A stretch of 63,241 nucleotides of DNA from Candidatus Micrarchaeota archaeon. GTDB taxonomy: Archaea; Micrarchaeota; Micrarchaeia; Anstonellales; Anstonellaceae. Shown here one piece after another: positions 1 to 58,312 of the stretch. Below the pieces are notes generated by a model that searched no databases, had not been told where the DNA came from, and was given only the letters and a program-made list of their open reading frames with translations. The position numbers and the translations under genes are program-made. How positions within the stretch are numbered: the stretch's first letter is position 1; the number at the start of each line of letters is the position of its first letter. The stretch spans positions 1 to 63,241 of the forward strand of contig JAOAJF010000002.1 of NCBI GenBank assembly GCA_026414325.1, in the 5' to 3' direction.

Positions 1-395
1 TTTGTCTTATTCATACAATAGCAATTACCTCCTTCATATACACACTCCATATTCTTATCTATCTCCTTACAATCATCCAAGCAATGTAATTGTGGATCTT
101 TTCCACTCAATCTCCCAGAACAAGAATAATATGTTATTGTCTTATTTGTCTCATTCTTTGTCTTATTCATACAATAGCAATTACCTCCTTCATATACACA
201 CTCCATATTCTTATCTATCTCCTTACAATCATCCAAGCAATGTAATTGTGGATCTTTTCCACTCAATCTCCCAGAACAAGAATAATATGTTATTGTCTTA
301 TTTGTCTCATTCTTTGTCTTATTCATACAATAGCAATTACCTCCTTCATATACACACTCCATATTCTTATCTATCTCCTTACAATCATCTAAGCA
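1..395 (-). repeat. In-frame 156-bp tandem repeat. Copies 1-156 and 157-312 are identical; the third copy is identical to ~389, then degenerate to ~470.
   Basis: I compared the stretches starting tttgtcttattcatacaatagc at 1, 157 and 313. The period of 156 bp equals 52 codons of the minus-strand CDS. The window begins inside the array. Confidence 0.9.
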
Positions 396-1832
396 CTTAT
401 ATTTTGGATTGTTAGATTTTTGTGTTCCTGAACAAGAGTAATATGTTTCTTCTTCTTTTGGAATACAAGTACAACTTACTATATCACAAACTAAATTTGG
501 ATCTTTACAATCTGGTATACATATTTTTTCCCTCGGCAAGCTAGGTTTGATTGGTGAAATTGGCACCAGTGGGTTAAAAAGATCTCCAATAATGGGAAGT
601 GGAAGCAAAAGTTTACTAAATCTAGTTATAAATTCATCAATAGGGTCTTTGGGTTTTTCTGGGATAATTTGTTCATAACAATATTTTGCTTCACATTGAC
701 AGGTTTTTTCATTCCAATATTCTGGAGGGCAATCTTTTCTTTCTTCTGGTGGGCAAACACAATCACATTTTTCTTTATCAAAAACATATGGCCTTAAACA
801 GATTCTATCTTCTTTACACTCACATTCACAAGTTTCTTCATTAAAAACAAAGTTTGGAGGACAATTTTTTATTTCTGGGCAGGCACATTTACAAGAGTAG
901 ACAGGATTTCCCCAGTAAGGAGAGGAGGTATCCTCCTCCGCAGAAGAAGTTGTGTAAGTGCGAGCAATACCCTCTATGGGAAGGCATATCTTTTTACCAG
1001 GACATCTGCCAAAACAACTTATTGGTTTACCTTCAGTATCTGTTCCAGAAATAAAAGTACAGTTTATATTTTTTGATACACATCTACATTTTGTTTTGGT
1101 CTCATTCTTTTCTACAATATTTTCTACAACACAAAAGCTTGGCTCACCAAGCACTTTTTCACAATCGTCAATACAAGCTAAAAACTCCTCTTCATAAACT
1201 GTAGGATTAAGAGAGCAACTAAAGACTCTTTTTTCTTTCTTTTTTTCTCCATCATCTGTTTGATTTGTATTATTTGTTTGGTTTTTATTAGTATCATTTA
1301 GATTTGTAGTCTCATTCTTTTTACAAACACAATCTTTAACATCACAGTAATAATCAGCTGGGCATTCATTTATACAATTAATTCTTTCATATTTTGTTTT
1401 ATATGGCGATTGAGGATTGCCTATACCTATACCTGCTGCTTCTATTATTATTGTATATTCGGAGGAAGAATTTTTAGGTAGGCGACACTTACTTTCATAA
1501 TAATAAGTACAACTACAATCCTCTTCGTTCCACCTTCCATTTGTCTTTATACAAAACTCTTTTTGTTGAGCTGGACAGACACACTGGCATTTTTCTAAAT
1601 CAAGAACTTTATTAATTCTTGCACAGCTCTGTTCTGTAAGTCTACAGCTACATTCACATCTTGGATAAGGAGTTTGAGAAATTAATCTGCATTCAAAATT
1701 TTCTTTATTACAGCTTCCAACACAAGTTAAGAGTTTTGAGTCATAATAACAACCAGGGGCTTGAATTACTTCTTGAGCGCTAATACTGTAAATCCAGACA
1801 AAAAATAAGAAAACCAAAAAATAGTTTCTCAA
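3..1832 (-). CDS. Secreted cysteine-rich repeat protein, 3'-truncated by the window edge (absent from the supplied ORF track)
   Basis: Hand translation of the minus strand from TTG at 1832 gives 610 codons with no stop. It starts MRNYFLVFLFFVWIYSISAQE (signal-peptide-like). Many CxC/CxCxC modules follow (PRCECSC, EKCQCVCP, ETCECEC, EKCDCVCP), then the 52-aa unit YYSCSGRLSGKDPQLHCLDDCKEIDKNMECVYEGGNCYCMNKTKNETNKTIT. Confidence 0.8.
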   Translation of the reverse strand, partial: MRNYFLVFLFFVWIYSISAQEVIQAPGCYYDSKLLTCVGSCNKENFECRLISQTPYPRCECSCRLTEQSCARINKVLDLEKCQCVCPAQQKEFCIKTNGRWNEEDCSCTYYYESKCRLPKNSSSEYTIIIEAAGIGIGNPQSPYKTKYERINCINECPADYYCDVKDCVCKKNETTNLNDTNKNQTNNTNQTDDGEKKKEKRVFSCSLNPTVYEEEFLACIDDCEKVLGEPSFCVVENIVEKNETKTKCRCVSKNINCTFISGTDTEGKPISCFGRCPGKKICLPIEGIARTYTTSSAEEDTSSPYWGNPVYSCKCACPEIKNCPPNFVFNEETCECECKEDRICLRPYVFDKEKCDCVCPPEERKDCPPEYWNEKTCQCEAKYCYEQIIPEKPKDPIDEFITRFSKLLLPLPIIGDLFNPLVPISPIKPSLPREKICIPDCKDPNLVCDIVSCTCIPKEEETYYSCSGTQKSNNPKYKCLDDCKEIDKNMECVYEGGNCYCMNKTKNETNKTITYYSCSGRLSGKDPQLHCLDDCKEIDKNMECVYEGGNCYCMNKTKNETNKTITYYSCSGRLSGKDPQLHCLDDCKEIDKNMECVYEGGNCYCMNKT

Positions 1833-1940
1833 AACATCACCTTCAATTTGTTTTATTAGCTCTAACAAAACAAAAATTTTTAAAGTTTTTCTTAGAAGTA
1901 TTTAAAAACTTTTATATTCTCTATAAAGATTTAAGTTTTT

Positions 1941-2447
1941 CTATCCATAATAGTCTAAAATTTTTTTTGCTGTTTGATTTAAAAGAAGCTCTTGTTTTTT
2001 AAGTTCGCTTTTTTTATTTATAGTCCAATATATTGTAGCTAGACTTAATCCAGCAGCTGCAGCTGCAGTTATCACTGATAATTTAGAGGCACCAAAAATA
2101 GAGAGTGCAGCAGTAGAAATTACAGAAAGATAAAAAATTTTACTTAAAAGTTTTTCTATTTTTAATATTTGTTTTCTTTCTTTTTCTAAAGAAAAGTTTA
2201 AGTCTCCATTGTTTTTTAATTTCATAGAAAGTTTTTCTCCCATATCCTGAAGAAGAAGAGTTTTTCTAAAAGTAGAATGAGTAAATTTATATTCTCTAAG
2301 GTTAGAATTGAAGCTATTAAACTTTTTGTTTAGTGTATTTTCTAGCTTATGAAATTTTAACAATTCTTTTTTCAATCTTTCTTTTTCAGTAGAATTTTGC
2401 AATTTTTTATTACCAAGTATTTTATACATTTTTCTCACTCCTCTCAT
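1941..2447 (-). CDS. Hypothetical coiled-coil protein with a C-terminal hydrophobic segment
   Basis: 168-aa ORF. The N-terminal part is K/E-rich; the hydrophobic stretch is LSVISTAALSIFGASKLSVITAAAAAGLSLATIYW. Confidence 0.5.
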   Translation of the reverse strand: MRGVRKMYKILGNKKLQNSTEKERLKKELLKFHKLENTLNKKFNSFNSNLREYKFTHSTFRKTLLLQDMGEKLSMKLKNNGDLNFSLEKERKQILKIEKLLSKIFYLSVISTAALSIFGASKLSVITAAAAAGLSLATIYWTINKKSELKKQELLLNQTAKKILDYYG

Positions 2448-2452
2448 TCTTA

Positions 2453-2523
2453 TGCGTCTGCCGGGATTTGAACCCGGGTCTTGAGCTTGGGAAGCTCACA
2501 TCCTGCCGCTGGACTACAGACGC
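2453..2523 (-). tRNA. tRNA-Gly (anticodon CCC)
   Basis: The reverse complement GCGTCTGTAGTCCAGCGGCAGGATGTGAGCTTCCCAAGCTCAAGACCCGGGTTCAAATCCCGGCAGACGCA folds as a cloverleaf. Anticodon loop is TTCCCAA, T-loop TTCAAAT. It is a GC-rich island in AT-rich DNA. Confidence 0.9.
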
Positions 2524-2562
2524 ACAAAATTTTTCCTCCTTTAAACTAAAATATAATTTAAT

Positions 2563-3252
2563 TCACTTTTTAAAAAAGTTTTTATTTTTCAAATATTCTT
2601 TAAATTTTTTGATTCCTTTAGAAGTTCCAATATCATGTATTTTTATATTCTGATATATTCCATATAATTTCTTTTTTTTTGCCAAAAAAGGAAATACTTC
2701 CTTTTCTAAACTTATTTTTTTATTTTTTTTACCTTTTTTATAATACAAATCCTTTTTTGAAATAAATCCAAAGCCAGAATATACAAACCCTTTTTTTATT
2801 TTTTTCTTTTCGTAAAACCCAACAATTTTTTCCCCATTCATTACTATAGCTCCTTTATTTTTTTGTTGATCTTCTGTTACTAACAACGTAGTTTTTTTTG
2901 TTTTTTCACATTTTTTTAGAAACTTCTCTAGTTTAATATTTTCAAGGTATGTGTCTGCATTTAAAATATAAAAAAAAGAAGGAAGTTTTCTAATTATCTG
3001 TATTATAGCACCAGCTGTGCCTAAAGCTCTTTTTTCTATAACTACCTCTATTTTTTTATTTTCATATTTTAAAAATTTTTTACCTCTATAGCCTGCTAAA
3101 AGAATTATTTTATCAAAAAAATTATAAAATTTTTCAAAAAGGTATCTAATAAATTCCTTATTATTAATTTTTATAAGTGGTTTTGGAACACTTTTAGTTA
3201 GAGCTCCTAATCTTTTTCCTCGCCCACCACACAATATAATTAATGTTCTCAT
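2563..3252 (-). CDS. hddC: Sugar-1-phosphate nucleotidylyltransferase, HddC-like (D-glycero-alpha-D-manno-heptose 1-phosphate guanylyltransferase candidate)
   Basis: N-terminal LCGGRGKRLGALTKSVPKPLIKI nucleotidyltransferase motif. It is divergently adjacent to hddA-gmhA-gmhB. Confidence 0.65.
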   Translation of the reverse strand: MRTLIILCGGRGKRLGALTKSVPKPLIKINNKEFIRYLFEKFYNFFDKIILLAGYRGKKFLKYENKKIEVVIEKRALGTAGAIIQIIRKLPSFFYILNADTYLENIKLEKFLKKCEKTKKTTLLVTEDQQKNKGAIVMNGEKIVGFYEKKKIKKGFVYSGFGFISKKDLYYKKGKKNKKISLEKEVFPFLAKKKKLYGIYQNIKIHDIGTSKGIKKFKEYLKNKNFFKK

Positions 3253-3313
3253 CTAAAAATAAACTAAAAATAAATTTATTAATATTTATAAAATTTCTTT
3301 CAATAATTAGTTT

Positions 3314-4318
3314 ATGGGTTTTTCTATAAAAACAAGGGCACCTCTAAGAATAAGTTTGGCAGGTGGCGGAACAGATGTTTCTCCTTTTTGTGATGAATAT
3401 GGAGGTGCTGTAATTAACATTGCCATCTCTAGATATGCTTATGTCTATTTATCTAAAATAAAACAAGGAATTAAAATCAAAAGTAATCTAAATACAAAAG
3501 GGATTTTATATAGCGGAAAAAAAGAATTTTTAAACAACCACCAACAAGATATTCTAAGAGCTATTTTAAAACATTATTTAAAATCCAAAGGCGGATATGA
3601 AATATCCTTTTTTTTAGATACTTTACCTAGATCTGGTTTGGGTTCTTCTGCAGCAGCATTTGTTTCTTTAATAGCTGCATTTAATTTTGCAGAATCTTTA
3701 GGATTGTCTAAAAAATCAATAGCAGAGCAAGCTTGGTATTTAGAAAGAGAAGAATTAAAAAATATAGGAGGAAAGCAAGATCAATATGCAAGCGTATTTG
3801 GAGGAATAAATTTTATGAAATTTTCAGCTAACGATGTTGAGCTTTATCCTCTAAGGGTAGATCAAAAAACTATTTTAGAACTAGAAAGCAGGATTTTAAT
3901 TTTTAATTATGCTCCTAGGGATCCTTCTGGTAAAATAATCGAGCAACAAATAAAAAATGTAAAGGAAAAGAAAAAACAAACCATAGATGCTCTTTTAAGA
4001 AATAAAGAAATAGCAAAAGAAATAACAAAGGAATTATTACAGACCAATATCGACAAGGTAGGGCTATTATTAGATGAAAGTTGGCAAGAAAAAAAGAAAT
4101 ATTCCTCATATATCTCTAATAGTGATTTAGATAAATTTTACAATAAACTAAAAAGCCTTGGTGTGATAGGTGGAAAAATTAGTGGGGCTGGGGGTGGAGG
4201 ACACATGTTTTTACTCTGTCAAGAGAACAAAACCCTCGATGTTTATTACTATTTATTAAATTCAGGGTTTAATCCATTCTTTTTAAAAATTGATTGGGAA
4301 GGGGTAATTGAATGGTAA
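3314..4318 (+). CDS. hddA: GHMP-family D-glycero-alpha-D-manno-heptose 7-phosphate kinase
   Basis: RAPLRISLAGGGTDVSPFCDEYGGAVINIAI N-terminus and GHMP motif LPRSGLGSSAAAFVSLI. Its stop overlaps the gmhA start. Confidence 0.75.
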   Translation: MGFSIKTRAPLRISLAGGGTDVSPFCDEYGGAVINIAISRYAYVYLSKIKQGIKIKSNLNTKGILYSGKKEFLNNHQQDILRAILKHYLKSKGGYEISFFLDTLPRSGLGSSAAAFVSLIAAFNFAESLGLSKKSIAEQAWYLEREELKNIGGKQDQYASVFGGINFMKFSANDVELYPLRVDQKTILELESRILIFNYAPRDPSGKIIEQQIKNVKEKKKQTIDALLRNKEIAKEITKELLQTNIDKVGLLLDESWQEKKKYSSYISNSDLDKFYNKLKSLGVIGGKISGAGGGGHMFLLCQENKTLDVYYYLLNSGFNPFFLKIDWEGVIEW

Positions 4319-7050: not shown

Positions 7051-7956
7051 GTGGTGTTAGTTATGTTTAATCTAATTAAGAAAATAAAAAAAATCCCAAA
7101 ATTTTTAGAACTAGTTTTTAAATATGTTAAACTTGAGAGCATAGTCGATGTTTTTATCTCAAAAATTTTTTGGATCCCAAGGCAAATTAAATTTAAAGAT
7201 GGTTCTGAAGCTTTTTTTTCAATTACCTATTCACATCTGCCTGCCCTTCCATCTAAAAAAAACTTAGTAGATGAAAAATACAAAATCTATTGCTGGGAAA
7301 TAGCTGGTAGAAAATTTTACTCTACAATAGAACAGGTTAGCTCCATTACTCTTCTTGCAATAACTAAAGACATAGATGTTTATTATGCAGCAGATTATAA
7401 AAACAAAAAAGTATTAGATGTGGGTGGGCATATTGGAGATAGTGCAATGTACTTTTTAGACAAAGGTGCAGCATTTGTAGATATTTATGAGCCAGTAGAA
7501 CAAAATATAATTTCTATGAAACTGAATTTGGCAAATTATCCAAAAGAAAAATATAAGATAAATCAATTAGCAGTTTGTAATAAAGAGGGAGAGCTTTCAT
7601 TTACTACTTTAGATTTCCCAGGCAGCCCTTCTTTTGGCAGTTCCTTTTTTTTGAAACCTTTAGCAGAATTTTTTAAACCCAAAGTAGAGAAGTATTCCTT
7701 TAGTTGTGTCTCTTTTAAAAAGATCTTAACTGAAAATCACTATGATATTGCAAAGATAGACTGTGAAGGCTGTGAAAAATATTTGTTAGAATTAGATCAG
7801 AAAACTTTAACTAAAATTCCTATATGGCTGATAGAGGTGCATTCTAAAGAATTAGAAAAAAATATTTTAGAAAAATTTAAGCAAGCTGGGTTTAAATCAA
7901 CAACAATGGAAAAATCTATTCCAGATCTTGGAACATATAAATTTGAATTGATTTAA
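7051..7956 (+). CDS. FkbM-family SAM-dependent methyltransferase
   Basis: VLDVGGHIGDSAMYF (SAM motif I) and IAKIDCEGCEKYLL (FkbM-type motif). The track start is GTG; an alternative ATG lies at 7063. Confidence 0.7.
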   Translation: MVLVMFNLIKKIKKIPKFLELVFKYVKLESIVDVFISKIFWIPRQIKFKDGSEAFFSITYSHLPALPSKKNLVDEKYKIYCWEIAGRKFYSTIEQVSSITLLAITKDIDVYYAADYKNKKVLDVGGHIGDSAMYFLDKGAAFVDIYEPVEQNIISMKLNLANYPKEKYKINQLAVCNKEGELSFTTLDFPGSPSFGSSFFLKPLAEFFKPKVEKYSFSCVSFKKILTENHYDIAKIDCEGCEKYLLELDQKTLTKIPIWLIEVHSKELEKNILEKFKQAGFKSTTMEKSIPDLGTYKFELI

Positions 7957-7981
7957 TTTTTTAAATTTCAAATTATTGAAC

Positions 7982-8554
7982 TTAATCGAGAATTCTCCTT
8001 TTTATATTCTGTAGCACAAGCCCAAAGGCCCCTCCAATTATAGCTGTCTGCAGCTGTACTATTCCCATAATAGCTAAAAAAGCCTCAGGAACATAGCCAA
8101 AAAAATAAAGTAAAAAAGAAATTAAAAATAACCAAAATGCTTTTACCAAAGCGCTTAGCACAATTGCAAAAATTTTGTTTAACTTTTTATAAAAAACAAA
8201 ATATTTTATTAAAAAAACAAAAATCGCATTTGCTATCCAAATAAAAGGAACAAAATAAACTAAAAACACAGTAAAATTTCCAAAAATTAGTCCTGCTGCA
8301 AGAGCTGCAATTGAAGGCAAAAGAATCGGCCCTAGCAAAATTTTTCCCTTCAAATTAAATGCACTTAAAACCAAAACACAATTTATTATACTACCAACTA
8401 AAAGCTGAGGGTGGCCTAATAAAAATGGTGCAAAAAAAGAAACTAAAATATAAACAACCACCTCTAAATTATATTCAAGCTCTTTTAGCTCATATTCTGA
8501 AAAATTTAACACTTCTTGAGCTGTTTTATAATAATTTTGATATAAATTCTTCAT
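7982..8554 (-). CDS. Integral membrane protein, function unknown
   Basis: 190 aa with about 5-6 hydrophobic helices. I recognise no diagnostic motif. Confidence 0.5.
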   Translation of the reverse strand: MKNLYQNYYKTAQEVLNFSEYELKELEYNLEVVVYILVSFFAPFLLGHPQLLVGSIINCVLVLSAFNLKGKILLGPILLPSIAALAAGLIFGNFTVFLVYFVPFIWIANAIFVFLIKYFVFYKKLNKIFAIVLSALVKAFWLFLISFLLYFFGYVPEAFLAIMGIVQLQTAIIGGAFGLVLQNIKRRILD

Positions 8555-8632
8555 AAAACTACTAACAAAAATTAGATTATAAAGCTTTTGGCTTTAGCTA
8601 AACTTTTAAAACCTAATTAAATTTAACAAAAT

Positions 8633-10003
8633 ATGCCAAAGCGCTTAAGCGAGGAAGAATTTCTAAAAAGAATTGAAAAAATAAACCAAACTGACCCTTG
8701 TTTTATTTTCGATCCTTCCAAATGCTTAAGATGTGGTCGTTGCGCTATAAAATGCCAACTTATTCAAGGGCTTTGTCCAAAACAATTTGATGAAAATTCT
8801 AAAAAATGGCTTGCCTGCCCAACTATTAGCCATGATGAAAACCTCGCTTTTTGTTCTTATTGTGGCCAGTGTTTATTAGTCTGTCCAACTAATGCTATAG
8901 ACGATAAAAAACAAATCGAACAAGTAAGTAGAGAACTGGAAGATAAAACAAAAATAGTTGTGGCTCAGACCGCTCCGGCAATCAGGGCAACTATAGGTGA
9001 GACTCAAAACATGCCCCCTGGAACTCTTAGCACTGGAAGATTAGTAGCTGCTCTTAGAAAATTAGGTTTTAATAAAGTTTTTGATACAAATTTTGGAGCT
9101 GATCTAACTACTATCGAGGAAGCAGAAGAATTGTTAAAACGTATAGAAAACAATGAGCAATTGCCTCTAATTAGCTCTTGTTGCCCAGCTTGGATAAGAT
9201 ATATGGAAAAATTCTTTTTTGATTTTAAAGATAATGTAAGTACTACTAAAAGTCCACATCAGATGGTTGGTTCTGTTATTAAGACCTATTATGCAAAAAA
9301 GAACAATTTAGATCCAAAAAATATTGTAGTGGTAAGTCTCATGCCTTGCACTGCAAAAAAATTTGAAGCAACCAGAGAAGAACAAAAAATAAATGGCCTA
9401 GCAGCAGTTGATTATGTTCTTACAACAAGAGAGCTTGGTCTAATGCTCAAGCAAGCAGGTATTGAGCTTAGAGCATTAGGAGATGAGTTTTATGATAGCT
9501 TAGTTGGCTGGTCTTCTGGAGCAGCTGCTTTGTATGGTGTGAGTGGAGGAGTGAGCGAATCTGTACTAAGATATATAAGCTACAAGCTTAGCAATGGACA
9601 GGAACAAAAACCAGAATTTATTCAAGTGCGAGGGGATCAACAAATAAGGCAAGTCTCTCTAACTATTTGTAATAGAGAGCTAAATATAGTGATTGTTCAT
9701 GGTCTAAATAATGCAAAAAAAGTTTTAGAACAAGTAAGAGAAAAAAAACTTAATCCACATTTTATTGAGATTATGGCTTGCCCTTTTGGTTGCATTGGGG
9801 GAGGGGGTCAGCCAAAACCACCAGCCGAACAAGTAATTAAAAAAAGAGCCATGGCTTTGTACTATCAGGATAATTTGTTAGAGATTAGATACCCTCAACA
9901 AAACCAAGAAATACAAACTCTTTACAAGGAGTATTTAGGCCAGCCTGGTTCAGCAAAGGCTAAAGAAATACTTCATACTACTTATTTTAAAAGAGAAAAT
10001 TAG
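8633..10003 (+). CDS. hydA: [FeFe]-hydrogenase catalytic subunit (2x[4Fe-4S] ferredoxin domain + H-cluster domain + SSU-like tail)
   Basis: Cluster motifs CLRCGRCAIKC and CSYCGQCLLVCP. H-cluster motifs are L1 ISSCCPAW, L2 MPCTAKKFE and L3 EIMACPFGCIGGGGQP. Also VAQTAPAIRATIGE, FDTNFGADLT and a tail LGQPGSAKAKEILHTTY. Confidence 0.85.
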   Translation: MPKRLSEEEFLKRIEKINQTDPCFIFDPSKCLRCGRCAIKCQLIQGLCPKQFDENSKKWLACPTISHDENLAFCSYCGQCLLVCPTNAIDDKKQIEQVSRELEDKTKIVVAQTAPAIRATIGETQNMPPGTLSTGRLVAALRKLGFNKVFDTNFGADLTTIEEAEELLKRIENNEQLPLISSCCPAWIRYMEKFFFDFKDNVSTTKSPHQMVGSVIKTYYAKKNNLDPKNIVVVSLMPCTAKKFEATREEQKINGLAAVDYVLTTRELGLMLKQAGIELRALGDEFYDSLVGWSSGAAALYGVSGGVSESVLRYISYKLSNGQEQKPEFIQVRGDQQIRQVSLTICNRELNIVIVHGLNNAKKVLEQVREKKLNPHFIEIMACPFGCIGGGGQPKPPAEQVIKKRAMALYYQDNLLEIRYPQQNQEIQTLYKEYLGQPGSAKAKEILHTTYFKREN

Positions 10004-10169: not shown

Positions 10170-10904
10170 TTATTCGAACAAAATCTTTGCAATATAAAGT
10201 AATATTATTCCCCCTAGCATTAACAAAAATCCAATAAAAGAATATTTTTTATTTTGTTCTTTGTGTAACTCTGGAACTAAATCTGCAGAAGCAATATATA
10301 TAAATCCTCCAGCAGCAATGCAAATTAAAACTAGTTTTAGGGGTTCAATATTTTCTGAAAGATAAAAACCAACTACAGAGCCAAGTACTGCAGAAAGAGA
10401 AACTAAAAAATTTAAAAAAAGTGCTTTTGATTTTTTCATTCCAAAATGCAGTAATATTCCCATATCTCCCAATTCTTGAGGGATTTCATGTAGGATTATT
10501 ACTGCACTGGTAGCTATACCTATATTAATATCTATCGAAAAGGCAGTTCCTATTGCCAATCCATCTATAAAATTATGTAAAACATCCCCATATAAATTCA
10601 TATAAGAAAGATGGTGCTTACATTGCGGCTCTTTGTCATGGCAATGATGCCAAAATAAAAATTTTTCTAAGATGAAAAAAAGCACAAAACCGCTTAATAC
10701 AAAAATCGCAACTTGTTCAAAATTTTTGGCTATTTCTAAAGCCTCATCAATTAAATGAAAAAATGCTCCTCCTAACAAAGCCCCTGCAGCAAAAGCAACA
10801 AGCAAGTAAATATATTTTGAAATTTTTGGGGAGTAAATTATCAATCCAACCAAAGAAAAGAGACTAACTATTATAGCTGCTGCTAAAGCAAATATTAATT
10901 CCAT
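10170..10904 (-). CDS. zupT: ZIP-family divalent metal (zinc) transporter
   Basis: HNFIDGLAIG and HEIPQELGD signature helices, 244 aa, multi-pass. Confidence 0.8.
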   Translation of the reverse strand: MELIFALAAAIIVSLFSLVGLIIYSPKISKYIYLLVAFAAGALLGGAFFHLIDEALEIAKNFEQVAIFVLSGFVLFFILEKFLFWHHCHDKEPQCKHHLSYMNLYGDVLHNFIDGLAIGTAFSIDINIGIATSAVIILHEIPQELGDMGILLHFGMKKSKALFLNFLVSLSAVLGSVVGFYLSENIEPLKLVLICIAAGGFIYIASADLVPELHKEQNKKYSFIGFLLMLGGIILLYIAKILFE

Positions 10905-11655: not shown

Positions 11656-12678
11656 ATGAGTAATTCTACTCAAACAAAGGAAAGCTTTCCTTTCAGAAGC
11701 GCACAACAAATAATAAACGATATAAAAGAGCTAAAAATACAAGGTGCAAGAAGAATAGCAAAAGCTGCTGTTGATGCAGTTATCTGGCAAATAAAAAACT
11801 CCAAAGCAAAAACTACAGATCAATTCCATGATGAAATTGTAGCTTTGGTTTTAGAATTAGAAAAAACTCGTCCAACCGAGCCAATGATGAGAAATTCTCT
11901 TCGAACAACCTTAAGATTTATTTTAAGCTGGTTAAGATTGAATAAAAAAGACGATCTGGTTGCTTTAAAATCAAATCTATTAAAATTTGAAAAAAATTTG
12001 CTTGATCTAATGGATGAAGAAGTAGAAAAATTAGCTCAAATTGGTTCTTCTCTAATTAAAGATGGCTCTAAAATTTTAGTTCATTGCCACTCAAACTCAG
12101 TAGTAAAAATTTTACAAAATTGTTTTGATCAAAATAAAAATATAGAAGTTAGCTGTTTAGAAACTAGACCTCTTTTTCAAGGAAGGCTAACTGCAAGAGA
12201 GCTCTCTAGTTATGGAATAAAAACCAATCTTTATGTTGATGGAGCAGTTGGAAGTATTATTCAAAAACACGATCTGGTTTTGGTTGGCGCAGATGCAATA
12301 ACTGCAGAAGGGGATTTAATAAACAAAATAGGCACATTTACTATCGCCCAGGTCGCAAAAATAAATCAGGTTAAATTTTTTTCAGCTGCAGAAATTTTTA
12401 AATATGACCCTTTAACAAGGTTTGGGATAGAAGAGATTATCGAGCAAAGAGATTATTTAGAAGTTTGGGGAGATGGGCGATACCAAAAAGAGCCTCAAGA
12501 CATTGAAATTTCTATAAACGATAACTTAAAAGTTTATAATCCAAGTTTTGATAGAACTCCAGCTGCATTTATAAGTGCTTATATATGTGAAGAAGGCCTA
12601 ATTCCCCCTCCTCTTATGGGTTATGTTGCTGAAAAAAAATTAAAACTAAGTCTAGGTGATTTAAATGAAAGTCTCTGA
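11656..12678 (+). CDS. e2b2: Ribose-1,5-bisphosphate isomerase (eIF-2B alpha/beta/delta-like)
   Basis: eIF-2B-like fold motifs ILVHCHSNSV and VGADAITAEGDLINKIGT. It overlaps the downstream AMP phosphorylase gene by 14 nt. Confidence 0.8.
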   Translation: MSNSTQTKESFPFRSAQQIINDIKELKIQGARRIAKAAVDAVIWQIKNSKAKTTDQFHDEIVALVLELEKTRPTEPMMRNSLRTTLRFILSWLRLNKKDDLVALKSNLLKFEKNLLDLMDEEVEKLAQIGSSLIKDGSKILVHCHSNSVVKILQNCFDQNKNIEVSCLETRPLFQGRLTARELSSYGIKTNLYVDGAVGSIIQKHDLVLVGADAITAEGDLINKIGTFTIAQVAKINQVKFFSAAEIFKYDPLTRFGIEEIIEQRDYLEVWGDGRYQKEPQDIEISINDNLKVYNPSFDRTPAAFISAYICEEGLIPPPLMGYVAEKKLKLSLGDLNESL

Positions 12679-14230
12679 ATACAACAACATAAAAGAAAAA
12701 ATTTTTAAGATCCAAAAAATGGAGCTAAAGGTAAGAAAAATAAAAATAATGGCAGCAGGAAACATAGTAGTTTTAAATTCTACCTTTGCTTTTCAAAATG
12801 GAATTTATGCAGATTATAGAATAAAACTCGAAAATACAAAAAAGAAAAAAGAATTAATTGCAATTGTTGATCTAACTAATGAGATGTTAAAGCCAGGGGA
12901 AATTGGCCTTTTTGAAAATGTTGCAAAGGCTTTAGATGTTGAAGATGGCCAAAAAATATATGCTCAACTTGTACTCAGGCCCCAAACTCTTTCTTTTATT
13001 AAAGAAAAAATAGAAGGAAAAACCTTAACTGCAGACAAAATCGATCAAATAATAAAAGATGCTATGCAAAACAAACTTTCAGATGCAGAGCTAGCCTCAT
13101 TTATGACTGCTTGTTATATTAATGGTATGTCCGACGAGGAAATCATTGGTCTTACAAATACAATTGTGGAGAGTGGCCAGACCTTAAAACTAAACAAAAA
13201 ACCAATTGTAGATAAGCATAGCATTGGAGGAGTTGCAGGAAATAGAACTACTATGATAATTGTTCCAATTGTTGCTGCAGCAGGTTGTTATATTCCAAAA
13301 ACTTCTTCTAGAGCAATAACCTCTGCAGCAGGCACTGCTGATACAATGGAAGTTTTAGCAAATGTTTCGTTGGAAATTGAAGAGATAGAAAAACAAGTTA
13401 GATCAATTAATGGTTGTATTGTTTGGGGTGGGGCAATAAATTTAGCTGCTGCTGATGACAAACTAATAAAAATAAGAAATCCTCTTTCTTTAGATCCAAA
13501 AGGAGTTTTACTAGCCTCTATTTTAGCAAAGAAAAAAGCAGTAGGAGCAAGATATTGTATTATAGATATTCCAGTTGGCAGAGGAGTAAAAATAGAAGAT
13601 GCTTCTGAGGCAAAACAACTGGCAGGGGATTTTATAAATCTTGGAAAAAAGCTTGGAATAGAAATTGAAGCTCTTATAACAAACGGAGAAGACCCAATAG
13701 GAAATGGAATTGGTCCTGCACTAGAATGCAAAGATGTTTTAGAAGTTTTAGAAGGAAAAGGACCTCATGATCTAAGAGAAAAAGCTCTGATTATGGCTGG
13801 AAAGCTTTTAGAATTAGCTCAAAAAGCAAAGAAAGGAGAGGGCTTTGCTTTAGCAGAAAGTATTTTAAATAGCAAAAAAGCCTTAAAAAAATTTCAACAA
13901 ATCGTCCAATGGCAGGGGGGTAAAAAAAATATTTCTTCTAAAGATGTGCCTGTAGCAAAATATAAACATACTATTTATTCCACTAAAACCGGAAGAGTAT
14001 CTCATTTAGACAATAAACTTTTGGCAAGAGTTGCAAGGGCTGCTGGAGCACCATCTGATAAAGAAGCAGGTATCTATCTCTATTGTGAAAAAGGCGATAT
14101 GATCTCAAAAGGTCAGCCAATTATGGATATCTATTCAAACTCAGAAACAAAATTGTCAGTAGCAATAAAAGTATTAGAAGAATATGGTCCAGTAGAGTTA
14201 GAAAAAGTTTTACTTGATAGTATTCGCTAG
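12665..14230 (+). CDS. deoA: AMP phosphorylase (thymidine phosphorylase family with archaeal N-terminal extension)
   Basis: 521 aa. DKHSIGGVAGNRTTMIIVPIVAAAG and TSSRAITSAAGTADTMEVL pyrimidine-nucleoside-phosphorylase motifs. GGTGAT lies 5 nt upstream of the ATG. Confidence 0.85.
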   Translation: MKVSEYNNIKEKIFKIQKMELKVRKIKIMAAGNIVVLNSTFAFQNGIYADYRIKLENTKKKKELIAIVDLTNEMLKPGEIGLFENVAKALDVEDGQKIYAQLVLRPQTLSFIKEKIEGKTLTADKIDQIIKDAMQNKLSDAELASFMTACYINGMSDEEIIGLTNTIVESGQTLKLNKKPIVDKHSIGGVAGNRTTMIIVPIVAAAGCYIPKTSSRAITSAAGTADTMEVLANVSLEIEEIEKQVRSINGCIVWGGAINLAAADDKLIKIRNPLSLDPKGVLLASILAKKKAVGARYCIIDIPVGRGVKIEDASEAKQLAGDFINLGKKLGIEIEALITNGEDPIGNGIGPALECKDVLEVLEGKGPHDLREKALIMAGKLLELAQKAKKGEGFALAESILNSKKALKKFQQIVQWQGGKKNISSKDVPVAKYKHTIYSTKTGRVSHLDNKLLARVARAAGAPSDKEAGIYLYCEKGDMISKGQPIMDIYSNSETKLSVAIKVLEEYGPVELEKVLLDSIR

Positions 14231-14819: not shown

Positions 14820-14921
14820 GGAGGGGTAGCAAAGCCTGGTCAAATGCGCAGGACTCAGAAGAGCGCAGCTGGGCAATCCTGTCCCTAAGTGGGTTCGTGG
14901 GTTCAAATCCCACCCCTTCCA
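14820..14921 (+). tRNA. tRNA-Leu (anticodon CAG) with a 16-nt intron at the canonical 37/38 position
   Basis: Acceptor GGAGGGG/CCCTTCC. Anticodon stem CAGGA...TCCTG is interrupted by AGAGCGCAGCTGGGCA (14860-14875). Long variable arm TCCCTAAGTGGGTTC, T-arm GTGGGTTCAAATCCCAC, followed by a T7 run. Confidence 0.85.
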
Positions 14922-16668: not shown

Positions 16669-16737
16669 TTTATTGTCGAAAGATGCTTTAAGCGTTGGCT
16701 AAAGATTTAAATATTTTAACTTTCTTTTTTGTTGTTT

Positions 16738-18483
16738 ATGTCAACAAAGCTGGAAAATATAGTCGTAAAATTTGGAGGAGAAGCTGGCGAAGGCTTAATG
16801 ACTGCTGGTTTTATAGCAGCAAAATATTTTCAAAGAACAGGTTTGTTTGTTTTTGCAGAAAACGACTATCCTTCTTTAATTAGGGGTGGGCACAATACCT
16901 TTACAGTTAGAGCAAATACAGAAAAAATTTATGCCTTGGATGGAAAAGTAGATATTTTAATAGCTTTAGACAAACGTTCAGTTCTAGAGCATATAAACGA
17001 ATTGTCAGCAAATTCTGTAGTAATTTTTGACAAAAAATTAGAAGGAGAATTAAGCCAAATCTTTACTAATAAAAATATCTATCCTGTTCCAGTACCACTA
17101 ACGCAACATTCAGCAGAATTAGGAGATCTAATTTATTCAAATCAGATTGCTATTGGCTCTCTGATTGGTTTAATCGGTGGAAAATTAGAAATACTTTCAA
17201 CAATATTAAAAGAAAAGTTCTCTTCAAAAAAAGAAGAAATTTTAGAAAAAAATTTAGCAGCAGCAACCTTTGGCTATGATTTTGTAAAAATGCATTTTAA
17301 AGAGCCTTTTGAATTACCAATAAAAGAGCAGAAAAAAAATTATTATCTTTTAGATGGAAATGATGCAGTTTGTCTAGCCTCAATAAAAGCAGGTGTAAAA
17401 TTAGTTGCAGAATATCCAATGAGCCCTTCTTCTTCAATCTTACATTGGATGGCAGCTCATTCTCAAGATTATGGAATTGTAGTAAAACAAACTGAAGATG
17501 AAATTGCTGCAATAAATTATGTTTTGGGTGCAGCTTATGCTGGAGTAAGAGCAATGACTGCTACTTCTGGAGGAGGATTTTCTCTAATGACTGAAGCATT
17601 GGGTAATGCTGGATTGGCAGAAATTCCTTGTGTTATTGTAGAAGTCCAAAGAGCTGGCCCTTCTACTGGTCTACCTACTTATACTGATCAGGCAGATTTG
17701 TTATTTGTAATCAATGCCTCTCAAGGAGAATTTCCAAGAATTGTTTGTATGCCTGGAGATCCAGCAGAAGCATTTTATGAAACATTTAATGTTTGGAATA
17801 TGGCTGAGTTAGTCCAAACTCCGGCAATAATTTTACTTGATAAATATTTAGGAGAATCTTTTCAGACAGTAGAAATAAAAACAGATAATTTAGTAGTAAA
17901 ACGAGGTTTACTTCAAACTGATCAAGAGATGGAAAATGCCAAACAATTTTTAAGGCATAAAATAACTCCTTCTGGAATCTCTCCTCGTTCTATTCCAGGA
18001 CAGAAAAATGGCTTGTATGTTGCTTCCTCTTATGAGCATGATGAGAGTGGCTATAGTAGTGAAGATCCATTAAATAGAGTAATGCAAATAGATAAAAGAG
18101 CTAGAAAACTTTCAGCTATAAATCCACAGCTTTATCAGCCAGTTTTTTTTGGCCCAGCAACTGCCCCGTTATTAGTTGTGTCTTGGGGTTCTAGCAAAGG
18201 TGTGATTTTAGAAGCACTAAAGCATCTAAACAGGCAAAATATTCCTATAAGGTATATGCATATAAAATATGCTATTCCTTTTGCAACAGATACTGTAAAA
18301 GAAGCACTTGTTTCAGCTTCTAAATCAATTATCTTTGAGGGAAATTCCACTGCCCAGATGAGAAGTTATATTCGACAAAAAACAGGTATTTTAATAGAAA
18401 ATGTCTGTCTTAAGTATGATGCTAGGCCATTTCAAGTAGAGCAAGTAGTTAATGAAATAAAAAAACTGTATCAAAGCCAGTAG
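16738..18483 (+). CDS. 2-oxoacid:ferredoxin oxidoreductase, fused gamma-alpha subunit
   Basis: Gamma-like FGGEAGEGLMTAGFIAAK...YPSLIRGGHNTF, then alpha-like DGNDAVCLASIKAGVKLVAEYPMSPSS. I prefer the ATG at 16738 over the TTG at 16729. Confidence 0.85.
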   Translation: MSTKLENIVVKFGGEAGEGLMTAGFIAAKYFQRTGLFVFAENDYPSLIRGGHNTFTVRANTEKIYALDGKVDILIALDKRSVLEHINELSANSVVIFDKKLEGELSQIFTNKNIYPVPVPLTQHSAELGDLIYSNQIAIGSLIGLIGGKLEILSTILKEKFSSKKEEILEKNLAAATFGYDFVKMHFKEPFELPIKEQKKNYYLLDGNDAVCLASIKAGVKLVAEYPMSPSSSILHWMAAHSQDYGIVVKQTEDEIAAINYVLGAAYAGVRAMTATSGGGFSLMTEALGNAGLAEIPCVIVEVQRAGPSTGLPTYTDQADLLFVINASQGEFPRIVCMPGDPAEAFYETFNVWNMAELVQTPAIILLDKYLGESFQTVEIKTDNLVVKRGLLQTDQEMENAKQFLRHKITPSGISPRSIPGQKNGLYVASSYEHDESGYSSEDPLNRVMQIDKRARKLSAINPQLYQPVFFGPATAPLLVVSWGSSKGVILEALKHLNRQNIPIRYMHIKYAIPFATDTVKEALVSASKSIIFEGNSTAQMRSYIRQKTGILIENVCLKYDARPFQVEQVVNEIKKLYQSQ

Positions 18484-18492
18484 GGTGAGAAA

Positions 18493-19350
18493 ATGGTTGA
18501 GTTAAGTCAGTTGCATGAGCCAACCCATACTATTACTTGGTGTCCAGGTTGTGGAAACTTTTCTATTTTGGCTGCATTAAAAAAAGCAATTGTAGATTGT
18601 AATCTAGAGCCTCATAATACAGTAATAGTTTCAGGTATTGGTTGTGGAGGAAAAATACCGCACTTTATAAAAACTTATGGATTTGAATCTTTGCATGGAA
18701 GAGCATTAGCCGCAGCTTCAGGAATAAAGCTTGCAAATCATAAACTAGAAGTAATAGTTGTAGGCGGAGATGGAGATGGATATGGAATTGGTGCTAATCA
18801 TTTTATTCATGCTTCTAGAAGAAATTATGATATGACTTACATAGTACAGAATAATCAAATTTATGGTCTAACCACTGGGCAGGCTTCTCCAACTTCTGAG
18901 AAATCTATGAAAACTAAAAGCACTCCTTTTGGAGTTATAGAGCAGCCAATAAATCCAATTGCTTTGGCTTTAGCAGCAGGAGCAACTTTTATTGCAAGAG
19001 GCTTTAGTGGAGATCTAACTCATCTTTCCAATTTAATTTCACAAGGAATAAAACACAAAGGTTTTGCTTTTATTGATGTTTTTCAGCCTTGTGTTATTTG
19101 GAATCATATTAACACTTTTGAATATTTTAGAAAAAAATGCTACAAGCTAGAACAAACAGATTACAAACCAAATGATAAATTTGAAGCATTTAGAAAAGCA
19201 TTTGAAACAGATAAACTTCCAATAGGTGTTTTTTATCAAGAGCAAAGGCCAACTTATGAAGATGAGTTGCCACAGCTAAGTACTAGCCCCCTGGTTAAAC
19301 AACCAATAGATAATATTGATATTCAAAAAACTTTAGAAAAATATTTGTAA
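18493..19350 (+). CDS. 2-oxoacid:ferredoxin oxidoreductase, beta (TPP-binding) subunit
   Basis: WCPGCGNFSIL and GGDGDGYGIGANHFIHASRRN...QNNQIYGLTTGQ TPP motifs. It lies 10 nt downstream of the alpha gene. Confidence 0.85.
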   Translation: MVELSQLHEPTHTITWCPGCGNFSILAALKKAIVDCNLEPHNTVIVSGIGCGGKIPHFIKTYGFESLHGRALAAASGIKLANHKLEVIVVGGDGDGYGIGANHFIHASRRNYDMTYIVQNNQIYGLTTGQASPTSEKSMKTKSTPFGVIEQPINPIALALAAGATFIARGFSGDLTHLSNLISQGIKHKGFAFIDVFQPCVIWNHINTFEYFRKKCYKLEQTDYKPNDKFEAFRKAFETDKLPIGVFYQEQRPTYEDELPQLSTSPLVKQPIDNIDIQKTLEKYL

Positions 19351-19351: not shown

Positions 19352-20836
19352 GTGAATTCGATGATAGTTAAGATAGGAAAAAATATTTTTTTTATTATAA
19401 TTTTTTTATTTTTTGCTCTAGGTACGGTAATTGGAGATTGTTTTGAGCAGGTTTATCAATATTCTGAGCCAAATTTGGCTCTAAATTGTCAGGACTTAAT
19501 TTTGGAAAATAATCAGGCACAAATAGTATATATCTCTTCTAATCCAACTTTATTGTTTATAAAAAATTCTTCTAAACCAATAGAAAACCAAGAGCAAATT
19601 AAAACTATTTTAGATAATTCTGTAATTTTCGAATCAAAATTTAATACTTTAGTGCAGGAGCTAAAGCAGAGAACAAATGAATTAAAAGTTTCTAAATCTG
19701 CTGCCGAGCAGAAGTGTTTGCAATATACTGGTATGGATCGCTATGAGTGCTATGATAAAGATTCTTGTCTATTAGCTGCATTTGCAGTTCCTCAAGCTTC
19801 TATTGCAGTTAATTCTCCAGGTTTTATTGATGCAATGCTTGATTTTGATAAAAAAAGAAAAAAATTAAATTCCTCGATAGAGAATTTATCTTCTTTGCTT
19901 TCTAATCCATCTCCCTCTTTAGAATATTCCAAACAGCTTAGAGCAGCAGTAGAAAATTTAGAGCAGGAAATTATAAACTACAATAGCTGTAATTTGATGT
20001 TAGATAAGACTGATCCAGGCTGTAATGTAAGTGGTGCAAAATGCTTTGAATACTGTCCAAAAATTTTACTTCCTTCTAAATGGATAGAAACTAAAAAAGA
20101 ACTGAGCTCAACCTCTTCTACTTTAGAAAAACTAAATTCCAATTCTGATTTAGCAAAAACTTTGGCTAAAAACACTATTGACTGGCTGAAATTTTTAGAA
20201 AAAAGAACGGTTCTTTGGGATGAGCTAAAAAGGGAGTTAAACAGTTTATTTCAAAACATAAATAATTCTCTCTCCTCAAAAAAATTTTCTGATAAGGCTT
20301 TAGAAGAATCCTTAAACCAGTCTCTGAATGCTTATGAGCAGATAAACTCAAAAATAAAAAATGGTGAATTTTTTCTAGCTATTGAACAAGGGATGAGTCT
20401 AAAAATAAATTTAGAACAACTCTCAAAACAAGTTTCAGGCTATAGAGAAAAACTAAATCAAATTGATAGAAAGCTTAATACTATCCAGCTCTCTTTAAAA
20501 GAAATCAAACAATCTGAAAATTTTGATAAGTTCAACCAAAAATTTTTAGAATTAAAAAATAGAACTTCCTCTCCAGTCCAAGCAAACGAGTTGGATGAGC
20601 TGCTAGCTACTTCTTCTGAATTAGAAGAGCAAGTATTGCTAGAAGTTGCAAAAATTAAATTAAAAATAAAAGACCAACCATCCAGCCAGGAAAAAAACAC
20701 CTCTAATCTTTCAGTAGAGAAAAAACCAGAAGGCCTTAGTTCTGGTTCATTACTGCCAACTTCGTTCTGTCCTTTAGCAAGTGGTTTTATTGGGTTGATC
20801 TTTATTTTTATTTTTTTCAGAAAAAGCCAAGAATAA
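19352..20836 (+). CDS. Secreted/anchored coiled-coil surface protein, function unknown
   Basis: N-terminal hydrophobic KNIFFIIIFLFFALGTVIG, a long coiled-coil-like body, and a C-terminal CPLASGFIGLIFIFIFFRKSQE tail. Confidence 0.6.
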   Translation: MNSMIVKIGKNIFFIIIFLFFALGTVIGDCFEQVYQYSEPNLALNCQDLILENNQAQIVYISSNPTLLFIKNSSKPIENQEQIKTILDNSVIFESKFNTLVQELKQRTNELKVSKSAAEQKCLQYTGMDRYECYDKDSCLLAAFAVPQASIAVNSPGFIDAMLDFDKKRKKLNSSIENLSSLLSNPSPSLEYSKQLRAAVENLEQEIINYNSCNLMLDKTDPGCNVSGAKCFEYCPKILLPSKWIETKKELSSTSSTLEKLNSNSDLAKTLAKNTIDWLKFLEKRTVLWDELKRELNSLFQNINNSLSSKKFSDKALEESLNQSLNAYEQINSKIKNGEFFLAIEQGMSLKINLEQLSKQVSGYREKLNQIDRKLNTIQLSLKEIKQSENFDKFNQKFLELKNRTSSPVQANELDELLATSSELEEQVLLEVAKIKLKIKDQPSSQEKNTSNLSVEKKPEGLSSGSLLPTSFCPLASGFIGLIFIFIFFRKSQE

Positions 20837-27705: not shown

Positions 27706-28410
27706 TTACCATTTTTCTGTTTTTATTTTTTCTTGTTTAATCTCATTTTTAATCAAAAGCTCTGAAAGCTGAGCTACAAATTCTTTTCCACCACACAAAT
27801 AGTATTTTGAATCTTTCCAATTTTTGTTATACTTTTTTATCATTTCTATATTTATTCTACCGTTTTCAAAATTTTCTTTTTGTTCTTGGCTGAGAGTATA
27901 AATAATTTTAAGAAATTTATTTTTTTTCTCTATTAAATCCAACAAATTTTTATAAGCTATATCTTTTTCTGTTTTATTGGAATAAAATAAATAAACCATT
28001 TTTTGATAATTCTTTTGTTCTAGCTCTTTTAACATACAAACAAAAGGAGTGATCCCAATTCCTCCTGCCAAAAAAACCGAACAATCCTCTTTTTCATCAA
28101 ATAAAAATTCTCCATAAGGACCAGCTATATTTATACTCTGGCCTATTTGCAAATCAATAAGTGCAGCAGAAAATTGTGCATGTTTTTTTATACCAAAACT
28201 TATTCTCTCTTTTTGATATGGTAATAAAGCCGAATAAGGTCTAAAATTTGGTTTTAATTGAGATTGGTCTATTTTAATCATAAAAAATTGCCCTGCCTTA
28301 TAAAAAGGAACCTCAAAACCAGCAGTTTCAAACTCCAAAGTATAAACATCCTCAGTTTCTCTAATCTTATTTTTTAAGATATATTTTTTGTATTCTATCA
28401 TAAAACCCAA
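27706..28410 (-). CDS. Ferredoxin-NAD(P)+ reductase-type FAD/NAD(P)-binding oxidoreductase
   Basis: RPYSAL (RxYS FAD motif) and FLAGGIGITPF (NAD(P) motif). 234 aa with no Fe-S Cys cluster. Confidence 0.7.
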   Translation of the reverse strand: MGFMIEYKKYILKNKIRETEDVYTLEFETAGFEVPFYKAGQFFMIKIDQSQLKPNFRPYSALLPYQKERISFGIKKHAQFSAALIDLQIGQSINIAGPYGEFLFDEKEDCSVFLAGGIGITPFVCMLKELEQKNYQKMVYLFYSNKTEKDIAYKNLLDLIEKKNKFLKIIYTLSQEQKENFENGRINIEMIKKYNKNWKDSKYYLCGGKEFVAQLSELLIKNEIKQEKIKTEKW

Positions 28411-39142: not shown

Positions 39143-39193
39143 ATATATTTTTAAATAAGTTAAAATTATAAACACTCGCTGTTTGAACATTTT

Positions 39194-58302: not shown

Positions 58303-58312
58303 TTTAATCCCT

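Follow-up and report, generated by a model that had tools for sequence, protein, structure and literature searches.

A monomeric M2-type [FeFe] hydrogenase in a Micrarchaeota archaeon and the six-helix membrane protein encoded beside it

The question raised by this locus is whether an archaeal [FeFe] hydrogenase gene (hydA), with neither HydE/F/G maturases nor electron-bifurcating subunits encoded nearby, specifies a native and working enzyme and which partners would serve it. The gene lies on contig JAOAJF010000002.1 (assembly GCA_026414325.1), of which positions 1 to 63,241 were analysed; this whole stretch is called the window here, and all results for the window cover ~63 kb out of a genome of perhaps 0.9 Mb. 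The contig comes from a DPANN archaeon of the Micrarchaeota (Anstonellaceae). We consider it highly likely that hydA encodes a native, apparently competent, monomeric hydrogenase of M2 architecture, which would receive ferredoxin electrons from a 2-oxoacid:ferredoxin oxidoreductase (OFOR), evolve H2 and be paired with a membrane protein encoded next to it. The gene and the parts of its product are as follows.

8633–10003, plus strand: hydA, ATG start, 456 aa, group A [FeFe] hydrogenase with M2 architecture
8723–8884, plus strand: F-domain with two ferredoxin-type [4Fe-4S] motifs
8723–8755, residues 31–41: first F-domain motif, CLRCGRCAIKC, with C31/34/37/41 equivalent to C147–C157 of CpI
8852–8884, residues 74–84: second F-domain motif, CSYCGQCLLVC, with C74/77/80/84 equivalent to C190–C200 of CpI
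9173–9193, plus strand, residues 181–187: L1 motif, SSCCPAW, with C183 in the proton relay and C184 as ligand of [4Fe-4S]H (CpI C299/C300)
9341–9367, plus strand, residues 237–245: L2 motif, MPCTAKKFE, with M237, C239 and K242 (CpI M353, C355 and K358)
9767–9814, plus strand, residues 379–394: L3 motif, EIMACPFGCIGGGGQP, with M381, C383 and C387 (CpI M497, C499 and C503)
9830–9994, plus strand, residues 400–454: C-terminal small-subunit-like domain (PF02256), including LHTTY at residues 447–451

All the elements that an earlier note on this DNA had read from the letters alone, namely the open reading frame (ORF), the two [4Fe-4S] motifs, L1 to L3 and the LHTTY tail, were found at their expected places. 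The stop-to-stop frame of hydA opens only at 8627, two codons before the ATG, so a hidden N-terminal domain is impossible. A Pfam search of the protein returned Fer4 (PF00037), Fe_hyd_lg_C (PF02906, residues 107–391, E = 1.8e-92) and Fe_hyd_SSU (PF02256, residues 400–454, E = 8.8e-20), and the NCBIfam model TIGR02512 ('[FeFe] hydrogenase, group A') scored 441.1 bits, above its cut-off of 405.95. The spacing of the F-domain cysteines, Cx2Cx2Cx3Cx32Cx2Cx2Cx3C, agrees with the 2[4Fe4S] pattern that Greening et al. (2024, Cell 187:3357; PMC11216029) applied. One 2x[4Fe-4S] domain precedes the H-domain, and neither a [2Fe-2S] nor a His-ligated [4Fe-4S] module is present in the protein, as is characteristic of the M2 architecture. 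The assignment to group A with M2 architecture, already proposed in the note, is thereby supported.

Alignment with CpI showed that the H-cluster cysteines C184, C239, C383 and C387 (CpI C300, C355, C499 and C503), the proton-transfer chain E163, E166, R170, C183 and S203 (CpI E279, E282, R286, C299 and S319) and the second-sphere residues K242, M237 and M381 (CpI K358, M353 and M497) are all intact. The same residues, together with the eight F-cluster cysteines, are also kept in the eight closest relatives from the clade described below. Since the catalytic residues are all retained, HydA is not a degenerate relative of the Nar1/NARF type, in agreement with the earlier reading, and its sequence suggests an apparently catalytically competent hydrogenase. 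A change of Q325 to His was considered as a clade-specific trait of HydA and dropped, as it is common in unlinked homologues (69/110).

The similarity of HydA to solved [FeFe] hydrogenases is far beyond chance, with E-values of 5.9e-118 for HydA1 of the bifurcating HydABC enzyme (8a6t_A) and ~1e-106 for CpI. In CpI of Clostridium pasteurianum, an M3 enzyme, the cluster ligands and proton pathway are those conserved in HydA, but two further N-terminal clusters are present. The large subunit of Desulfovibrio desulfuricans DdH (1hfe_L/8rtg_A, E ~1e-83) resembles HydA in having, as an M2-type enzyme, only two F-clusters besides the H-cluster; however, DdH is periplasmic and heterodimeric with a separate small subunit, whereas the small-subunit-like segment of HydA, which aligns with both the CpI C-terminus and the DdH small subunit, is fused to the catalytic part. 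The closest solved topology is therefore that of the engineered large-small subunit fusions 8ryh and 9gbu (E ~1e-92).

The strongest likeness over the F-domain, the H-domain and the C-terminal tail is to HydA of HydABC enzymes (group A3, named 'group A6' in NCBIfam; structures 8a6t and 7q4v), and the top-scoring NCBIfam model is likewise HydABC-type (NF040763, 564.6 bits). These matches, as well as the occurrence of the nearest relatives outside the clade in archaeal HydABC operons, could mean that HydA is the catalytic subunit of a bifurcating group A3 enzyme whose HydB and HydC are encoded elsewhere in the genome. Against this, the NF040763 score lies below the cut-off of 765, and the alignment covers only profile positions 129–571 and leaves 1–128 unmatched. 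The alignments to the M3 enzymes 8a6t_A and CpI also begin at their residue 129, so the N-terminal ~128 residues that carry the [2Fe-2S] and His-ligated [4Fe-4S] clusters in HydABC-type HydA have no counterpart here. No HydB or HydC was found in the window (tblastn, best E 0.08), nor was either called near hydA in the relatives' loci examined, including all nine M2-clade loci, although HydC-HydB-HydA genes are contiguous in related archaea. We thus regard a bifurcating HydABC complex as very improbable and a partner-less monomer as the preferred reading.

In a distance (neighbour-joining) tree of 137 sequences (456 columns, 100 bootstraps), HydA falls into a Micrarchaeota-specific M2 clade with 99% bootstrap support, not into a recent bacterial clade. 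Its nearest proteins are 55–70% identical, 455–519 aa long and of M2 architecture, and they are labelled Micrarchaeota or Anstonellaceae wherever named; homologues outside the clade reach at most ~54% identity. The nearest neighbours of the clade include P0010 and P0012 (P-numbers denote homologous proteins; L-numbers denote relatives' loci from independent metagenome-assembled genomes (MAGs) or metagenomes), both of which sit in HydC-HydB-HydA operons beside an archaeal TFE gene and therefore represent an archaeal group A3. Read most simply, these sequences would make the M2 enzymes an offshoot of the DPANN HydABC-type HydA that has lost its partners and been shortened at the N-terminus.

A separate observation concerns locus L169, where the [2Fe-2S] N-domain of HydA is a separate 68-aa ORF (7804–8010, plus strand) overlapping the start of a 501-aa HydA (8001–9506, plus strand). 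This split N-domain lies in an archaeal HydC-HydB-HydA operon and reflects either gene fission or a frameshift; it may represent a stage on the way to the M2 form.

Whether hydA belongs to the archaeal genome can be judged from the features around it, which include the following.

7982–8554, minus strand: gene of a divergent membrane protein (6TM protein; TM, transmembrane), 190 aa, with an N-terminal helix and six long helices
10019–10094, minus strand: tRNA-Gly(UCC), convergent with hydA and 16 nt past its stop
10170–10904, minus strand: ZIP-family divalent-metal transporter (PF02535, E = 7e-43)
28.9–37.1 kb: A-type ATPase operon (I, E, C, F, A, B, D), an archaeal marker

The archaeal nature of the contig, as the note had claimed, is apparent from the ATPase operon and from genes for a class I CCA-adding enzyme, DUF460, Alba and an archaeal-type ProRS; a GHMP kinase was also detected in the Pfam scan of the window, which covered ORFs of at least 90 aa except those inside or largely overlapping a longer annotated ORF. 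ATPase subunit A is 93% identical to its counterparts in three 'Candidatus Anstonellaceae archaeon' MAGs, and among its top 120 matches all named ones are archaea, nearly all of them Micrarchaeota. [FeFe] hydrogenases are overwhelmingly bacterial, the next-best matches of HydA outside the clade include many Bacillota, and the GC content of hydA (0.36) is slightly over the contig mean, all of which would fit bacterial DNA that had reached an archaeal contig by mis-binning or chimeric assembly, or else very recent transfer from bacteria. The composition of the gene is nevertheless unremarkable: its codon-usage distance is 0.057 (contig range 0.046–0.123), its tetranucleotide distance lies at the 91st percentile of the contig, and its GC content equals that of the ATPase A and B genes. 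Moreover, hydA stands among archaeal genes of the same contig, and relatives share its neighbourhood. Genes for a GT4 glycosyltransferase, MgtC, the membrane protein, HydA, tRNA-Gly(UCC), ZIP, a nitroreductase, R15P (ribose-1,5-bisphosphate) isomerase, AMP phosphorylase, OFOR and FNR recur among L001–L007 and L088. These neighbours are 51–83% identical to those of the window, a range that brackets HydA's own 56–70%, and the gene order around hydA repeats in at least five independent assemblies. Every named member of the monophyletic clade is a Micrarchaeota or Anstonellaceae archaeon, its unnamed members carry the same 6TM-hydA order, and bacterial genome loci yielded no sequence above ~48% identity. 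Because the neighbourhood is shared with independent and similarly diverged relatives, hydA is native, and a chimera or recent bacterial transfer is effectively excluded; this explanation, whose probability we take as negligible, is already effectively refuted.

The tRNA-Gly(UCC) gene also stands directly 3' of hydA in L004 and L088, and the ZIP gene adjoins hydA in L004/L088, L005 and L007 as well. The conserved downstream metal transporter may be relevant as well.

The novelty that the earlier note attached to an archaeal [FeFe] hydrogenase was overstated, as the class, its lack of maturases and its linkage to OFOR have been published, and close homologues in NCBI MAGs are already annotated '[FeFe] hydrogenase, group A'. 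Group A [FeFe] hydrogenases of Micrarchaeota, usually without maturases, were reported for archaea by Greening et al. (PMC11216029), whose study covered 26 group A1 sequences. These probably include P0007 (MAG GCA_002778455.1), a member of the M2 clade, whose low accession number suggests that it predates the study. The window hydA is thus a member of a published class and in itself unsurprising to a specialist. Like archaeal group A1 (e.g., 'Mu' of Micrarchaeota UBA95), the window HydA comes from the same phylum, is monomeric and lacks HydB/C, and both share a nearby OFOR, a usual absence of maturases and a neighbour with 4–6 TM helices named 'hyd6TM'. In contrast to the 'minimal' forms of this group (mean 363 aa, no accessory FeS clusters), HydA has 456 residues and retains its 2x[4Fe-4S] domain; it accordingly agrees with group A1 in being a monomeric, partner-less enzyme of a DPANN host and departs from it in exceeding the minimal length of ~363 aa. 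True minimal forms (~356–369 aa) were found in L127, L136, L138, L143 and L146, all outside the M2 clade; four of the five make up a clade of their own with 100% support, and L138 is unplaced. The gene therefore adds a well-preserved member to a recently described class and documents an M2 architecture intermediate between the DPANN HydABC-type and the 'minimal' enzymes.

The earlier note had placed hydA alone between a membrane protein and a tRNA. The two flanks were correct, but the gene is not alone, since the membrane protein is a conserved divergent partner. Homologues of the 6TM protein (40–57% identity) are encoded immediately upstream of hydA in L001–3, L004/L088, L005/6 and L170–L173, and the divergent 6TM-hydA pair is present in 8/9 M2-clade lineages, the ninth being L007. 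For the reverse test, 80 metagenomic loci were fetched starting from the 6TM family. A HydA-like ORF was found in 39 of these 80, with a gap of no more than 91 nt in 32/39. Among the 31 loci that are well flanked (at least 1.5 kb on both sides), a hydrogenase occurs within 300 nt in 20 and anywhere in the locus in 22; a further two show HydB/HydC-like ORFs where the contig ends, which brings the hydrogenase-linked loci to ~24/31. By comparison, a control set of 79 bacterial hydA loci, with flanks reaching at most 10 kb, contains no member of the family; the single Woesearchaeota locus does have one. The control loci were taken from a HydA scan of genome contigs, which was dominated by bacterial matches via the MPCTAKKF pattern and returned no Micrarchaeota relatives.

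The hydrogenases linked to the 6TM family are of four kinds, which fall in separate, well-supported clades: M3-like enzymes of ~570–617 aa, M2 enzymes of 463 aa, minimal enzymes of 356–369 aa, and proteins of ~264–284 aa. The last kind shows NPCP, GPCxxKKL and CxGGCINGPG motifs, is matched best by the C-terminal region of the group B1 model and, by its fit to the description, probably corresponds to the 'ultraminimal group E' [FeFe] hydrogenases. The two genes occur in four relative orientations (6TM gene upstream or downstream on the same strand, divergent, or convergent), often with gaps of 0–30 nt. Given that the 6TM protein follows several hydrogenase architectures in DPANN archaea, it appears to be functionally tied to the H-domain, and it could serve as a membrane partner, anchor or scaffold or as a small-molecule transporter. 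One might object that the adjacency is merely the conserved gene order of one lineage and the 6TM protein unrelated to the hydrogenase: the region is broadly syntenic among Anstonellales relatives, seven of the 31 well-flanked loci have no hydrogenase, and the protein has no redox-cofactor motifs. Yet the linkage holds over four architectures in separate clades and over four orientations while all the other neighbours differ, which is the signature of a functional link. We judge mere gene order improbable and keep to the reading in which the 6TM protein is a partner of the enzyme.

Two side observations touch on these linked hydrogenases. The 264–284-aa ORFs lie directly 3' of the 6TM gene in L141, L142, L144, L145, L147–149, L152, L153, L155–157 and L165, and in every case the 6TM gene is on the same strand as the group-E-like ORF, the two often overlapping. 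As for the L1 motif, TSCSP, which has Ser where CpI has C300, is found in 76/137 aligned group A sequences, mostly of the bacterial HydABC type, including bacterial homologues within P0011–P0120 and PDB 7q4v_A. The window enzyme has SSCCP in contrast to the TSCSP of most bacterial HydABC-type members, and the two L1 cysteines are kept in the whole M2 clade and in all 6TM-linked enzymes checked but one, L138, which has no recognisable L1 motif. No column of the HydA alignment holds a residue exclusive to 6TM-linked enzymes; the top column reflects the bacterial TSCSP variant.

With regard to the identity of the 6TM protein, searches against Pfam (E ≤ 10), NCBIfam and PDB profiles gave no meaningful match. 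A profile search of 1.84 billion representatives collected 931 representative clusters of the family, and the ten members that were looked up carry no label beyond 'hypothetical protein'. In PMC11216029, 'hyd6TM' is an uncharacterised protein with 4–6 TM helices encoded next to archaeal group A hydA, group A only being named in the definition; two figure legends in that paper are the sole mention found in the literature. An AlphaFold2 model of the protein (pLDDT 91.9) was compared with the PDB by Foldseek, and the top six matches were all S-components of ECF transporters (probability 0.96–1.0, TM-score 0.42–0.64), with weak E-values of 0.045–0.4. S-components such as RibU, ThiT, YkoE-like 5edl and BioY resemble the 6TM protein in their length of ~180–190 aa and their six membrane helices but have no detectable sequence relationship to it, and neither an EcfA/EcfT gene nor an LSGGQ ABC signature was found in the window. 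The invariant residues of the family are polar or structural (P43, Q50, N58, N109, K138, Q167, T170 and others). As no cysteine is invariant and the only conserved histidine (H48) is not invariant, a redox cofactor is unlikely in the 6TM protein.

A further question is how the H-cluster of such an enzyme would be assembled. As the earlier note had noticed, the window contains no HydE, HydF or HydG gene (tblastn with bona fide sequences from L007, best E 0.21), and no window ORF of at least 150 aa has the radical-SAM motif CxxxCxxC. This absence from 63 kb is uninformative, because the maturases are unlinked in 73/79 of the bacterial control loci, a maturase gene lying within 10 kb in the other six. 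The genes for HydEFG may lie outside the window, or the organism may have none, like most archaea with these enzymes; a full maturase set was reported in only 5/130 archaeal genomes with [FeFe] hydrogenases, and an alternative pathway was proposed (PMC11216029). In L007 (GCA_043810635.1, Micrarchaeota), HydG-HydF-HydE genes (211–3969, minus strand) divergently adjoin an M2-clade hydA whose product is nested in the clade with 97% support. HydG (582 bits, cut-off 312) and HydE (350 bits, cut-off 255) score well above the thresholds of their models and HydF at its threshold (325.2 bits, cut-off 325.55). These three genes occupy exactly the slot that the 6TM gene has in the other eight lineages, and no member of the 6TM family was detected in L007 by the family hidden Markov model (HMM) over 15.5 kb. 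An 89-aa ORF 3' of hydA in L007 was considered as a 6TM remnant and rejected, the family HMM being silent in this locus. Another side observation is a 378-aa radical-SAM protein in L096 (11269–12402, minus strand), encoded 700 nt from the hydA-6TM pair and thus beside a maturase-less hydrogenase. Its scores with the HydG (122 bits) and ThiH (123 bits) models are far under the cut-offs; it lacks the HydG C-terminal region and is tyrosine-lyase-like.

The lack of maturases in the window and their rarity among archaeal genomes would also be compatible with a HydA that is made but never receives its [2Fe] subcluster, its host having no HydEFG; the protein would then be an apo-protein, a relic, or in a non-hydrogenase or sensory role. 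However, the residues that serve only to bind the H-cluster and to transfer protons are fully conserved across a clade that has diverged to 56% identity, indicating purifying selection for catalysis, and L007, nested in the clade, keeps HydG, HydE and (at the cut-off) HydF beside hydA. In addition, a Micrarchaeota group A1 enzyme was active once artificially matured, and maturase-less Asgard cultures make H2 (PMC11216029). Considering also how little the absence from 63 kb tells, we find an apo-protein hardly probable, and an active hydrogenase remains the preferred reading.

A bolder idea, to which we give a small chance only, is that the 6TM protein is part of a HydEFG-independent route to an active H-cluster in DPANN archaea. 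For example, it might act like an S-component and take in a [2Fe] precursor made in advance, or a key building block that is scavenged from its host or community; alternatively, it might be a membrane scaffold for subcluster insertion. Such a route is hinted at by the way the 6TM protein tracks the H-domain over four architectures, in the archaeal loci sampled and in none of the 79 bacterial ones, and by the HydG-HydF-HydE genes in the 6TM slot of L007. The resemblance of the predicted fold to S-components, the group-E-like linkage and the HydGFE exchange in L007 appear to be new observations, in the form of bioinformatic leads. How H-clusters are assembled without HydE/F/G in archaea and some eukaryotes is a question raised explicitly by PMC11216029; the 6TM protein, whose gene accompanies hydrogenases of all the archaeal architectures looked at, offers a concrete candidate for this maturation problem, and its apparent alternation with HydGFE offers a testable handle on it.

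Features that bear on the expression of hydA and on its electron supply are listed here.

8555–8632: spacer of 78 nt shared by hydA and the 6TM gene, with two TATA-like elements
8577–8583: TTATAAA, ~26 nt from the 6TM start
8604–8611: TTTTAAAA, ~26 nt from the hydA ATG
16729–19350, plus strand: two-subunit OFOR, alpha 16729–18483 and beta 18493–19350
27706–28410: FNR-like flavoprotein

The neighbours on both sides of hydA are on the opposite strand, so by geometry the gene is its own transcription unit, which agrees with its previous description as monocistronic. The spacer suggests a putative back-to-back archaeal promoter pair giving leaderless mRNAs, a weak signal in a genome of ~70% AT; the corresponding spacers of L170, L171 and L173 likewise contain a TTATATA-like element.

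The two redox enzymes that the note had named as plausible partners, OFOR and the FNR-type flavoprotein, were both confirmed in the window. OFOR genes with 70–81% identity are immediate neighbours of the 6TM-hydA pair in L004/L088 and are found 3 kb away from it in L005, and OFOR is the probable source of reduced ferredoxin for HydA. OFOR genes near archaeal group A [FeFe] hydrogenases have been reported in PMC11216029, where ferredoxin-coupled fermentative H2 production was predicted for the monomeric archaeal group A1 enzymes and H2 production was measured for a group A1 enzyme of the Micrarchaeota. On this model, OFOR would oxidise a 2-oxoacid and reduce ferredoxin, whose electrons would travel by way of both F-domain [4Fe-4S] clusters to reach the H-cluster; the conserved Glu-Ser-Glu-Cys relay would bring protons there, and H2 would be released. 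In this organism, whose reduced genome also encodes an AMP/RuBisCO salvage pathway, H2 release could be the sink for fermentation electrons. This path draws on family knowledge, on the conserved OFOR synteny and on the prediction for monomeric archaeal enzymes, and ferredoxin-dependent H2 evolution downstream of OFOR is the most likely role of HydA.

Several points weigh against the account given here. No ferredoxin-type CxxCxxCxxxC motif occurs outside HydA in the six frames of the window, in keeping with the note's remark that no ferredoxin lies nearby, and with no ferredoxin gene in the window we infer the electron donor of HydA. Should the host have no HydEFG, HydA might not be matured in it at all. 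The sister group of the M2 clade, consisting of M3-like proteins of ~565 aa, is weakly supported (37% bootstrap). With respect to the membrane partner, there are the 7/31 well-flanked 6TM loci with no hydrogenase nearby, and the protein is very probably the 'hyd6TM' of PMC11216029, a match made by description and not by sequence.

Some other observations were made in the window. Directly after OFOR, a 494-aa ORF (19352–20836, plus strand) has no Pfam match even at E 0.01 and no counterpart in L001, L004, L005, L007 and L088; its GTG start is 2 nt past the OFOR beta stop, and it thus looks translationally coupled. The AMP salvage pathway is complete (11656–14230 and 39194–40438, both plus strand), comprising R15P isomerase of the IF-2B family, AMP phosphorylase and a form III-type RuBisCO large subunit. 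The ORFs of the first two overlap by 14 nt, and both are syntenic with hydA in L007 and L088. A tRNA of 102 nt (14820–14921, plus strand) was detected by Rfam with 46.8 bits, ARAGORN being silent; with an excess of ~30 nt it is probably an intron-containing archaeal tRNA. The ProRS ORF (37688–39364, minus strand, TTG start) overlaps the RuBisCO ORF (39194–40438, plus strand) on the opposite strand by 171 nt, and its start was probably over-extended by the mechanical ORF call.

A 1282-aa ORF with no Pfam domain (41679–45527, plus strand) adjoins an ankyrin-repeat protein (40526–41545, minus strand), and L005 has a 1121-aa ORF with faint ankyrin matches in a similar neighbourhood. With the Tubulin/FtsZ GTPase profile, a 184-aa ORF (51513–52067, minus strand) aligns over the C-terminal half alone (positions 96–189 of 190); it may be a truncated or divergent FtsZ-like gene. 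Finally, a metal-handling cluster (56095–59874, minus strand) encodes a P-type (E1-E2) ATPase with an HMA domain, an FtrD-like membrane iron-sulfur protein (58313–58813) and a 345-aa HMA-domain protein.

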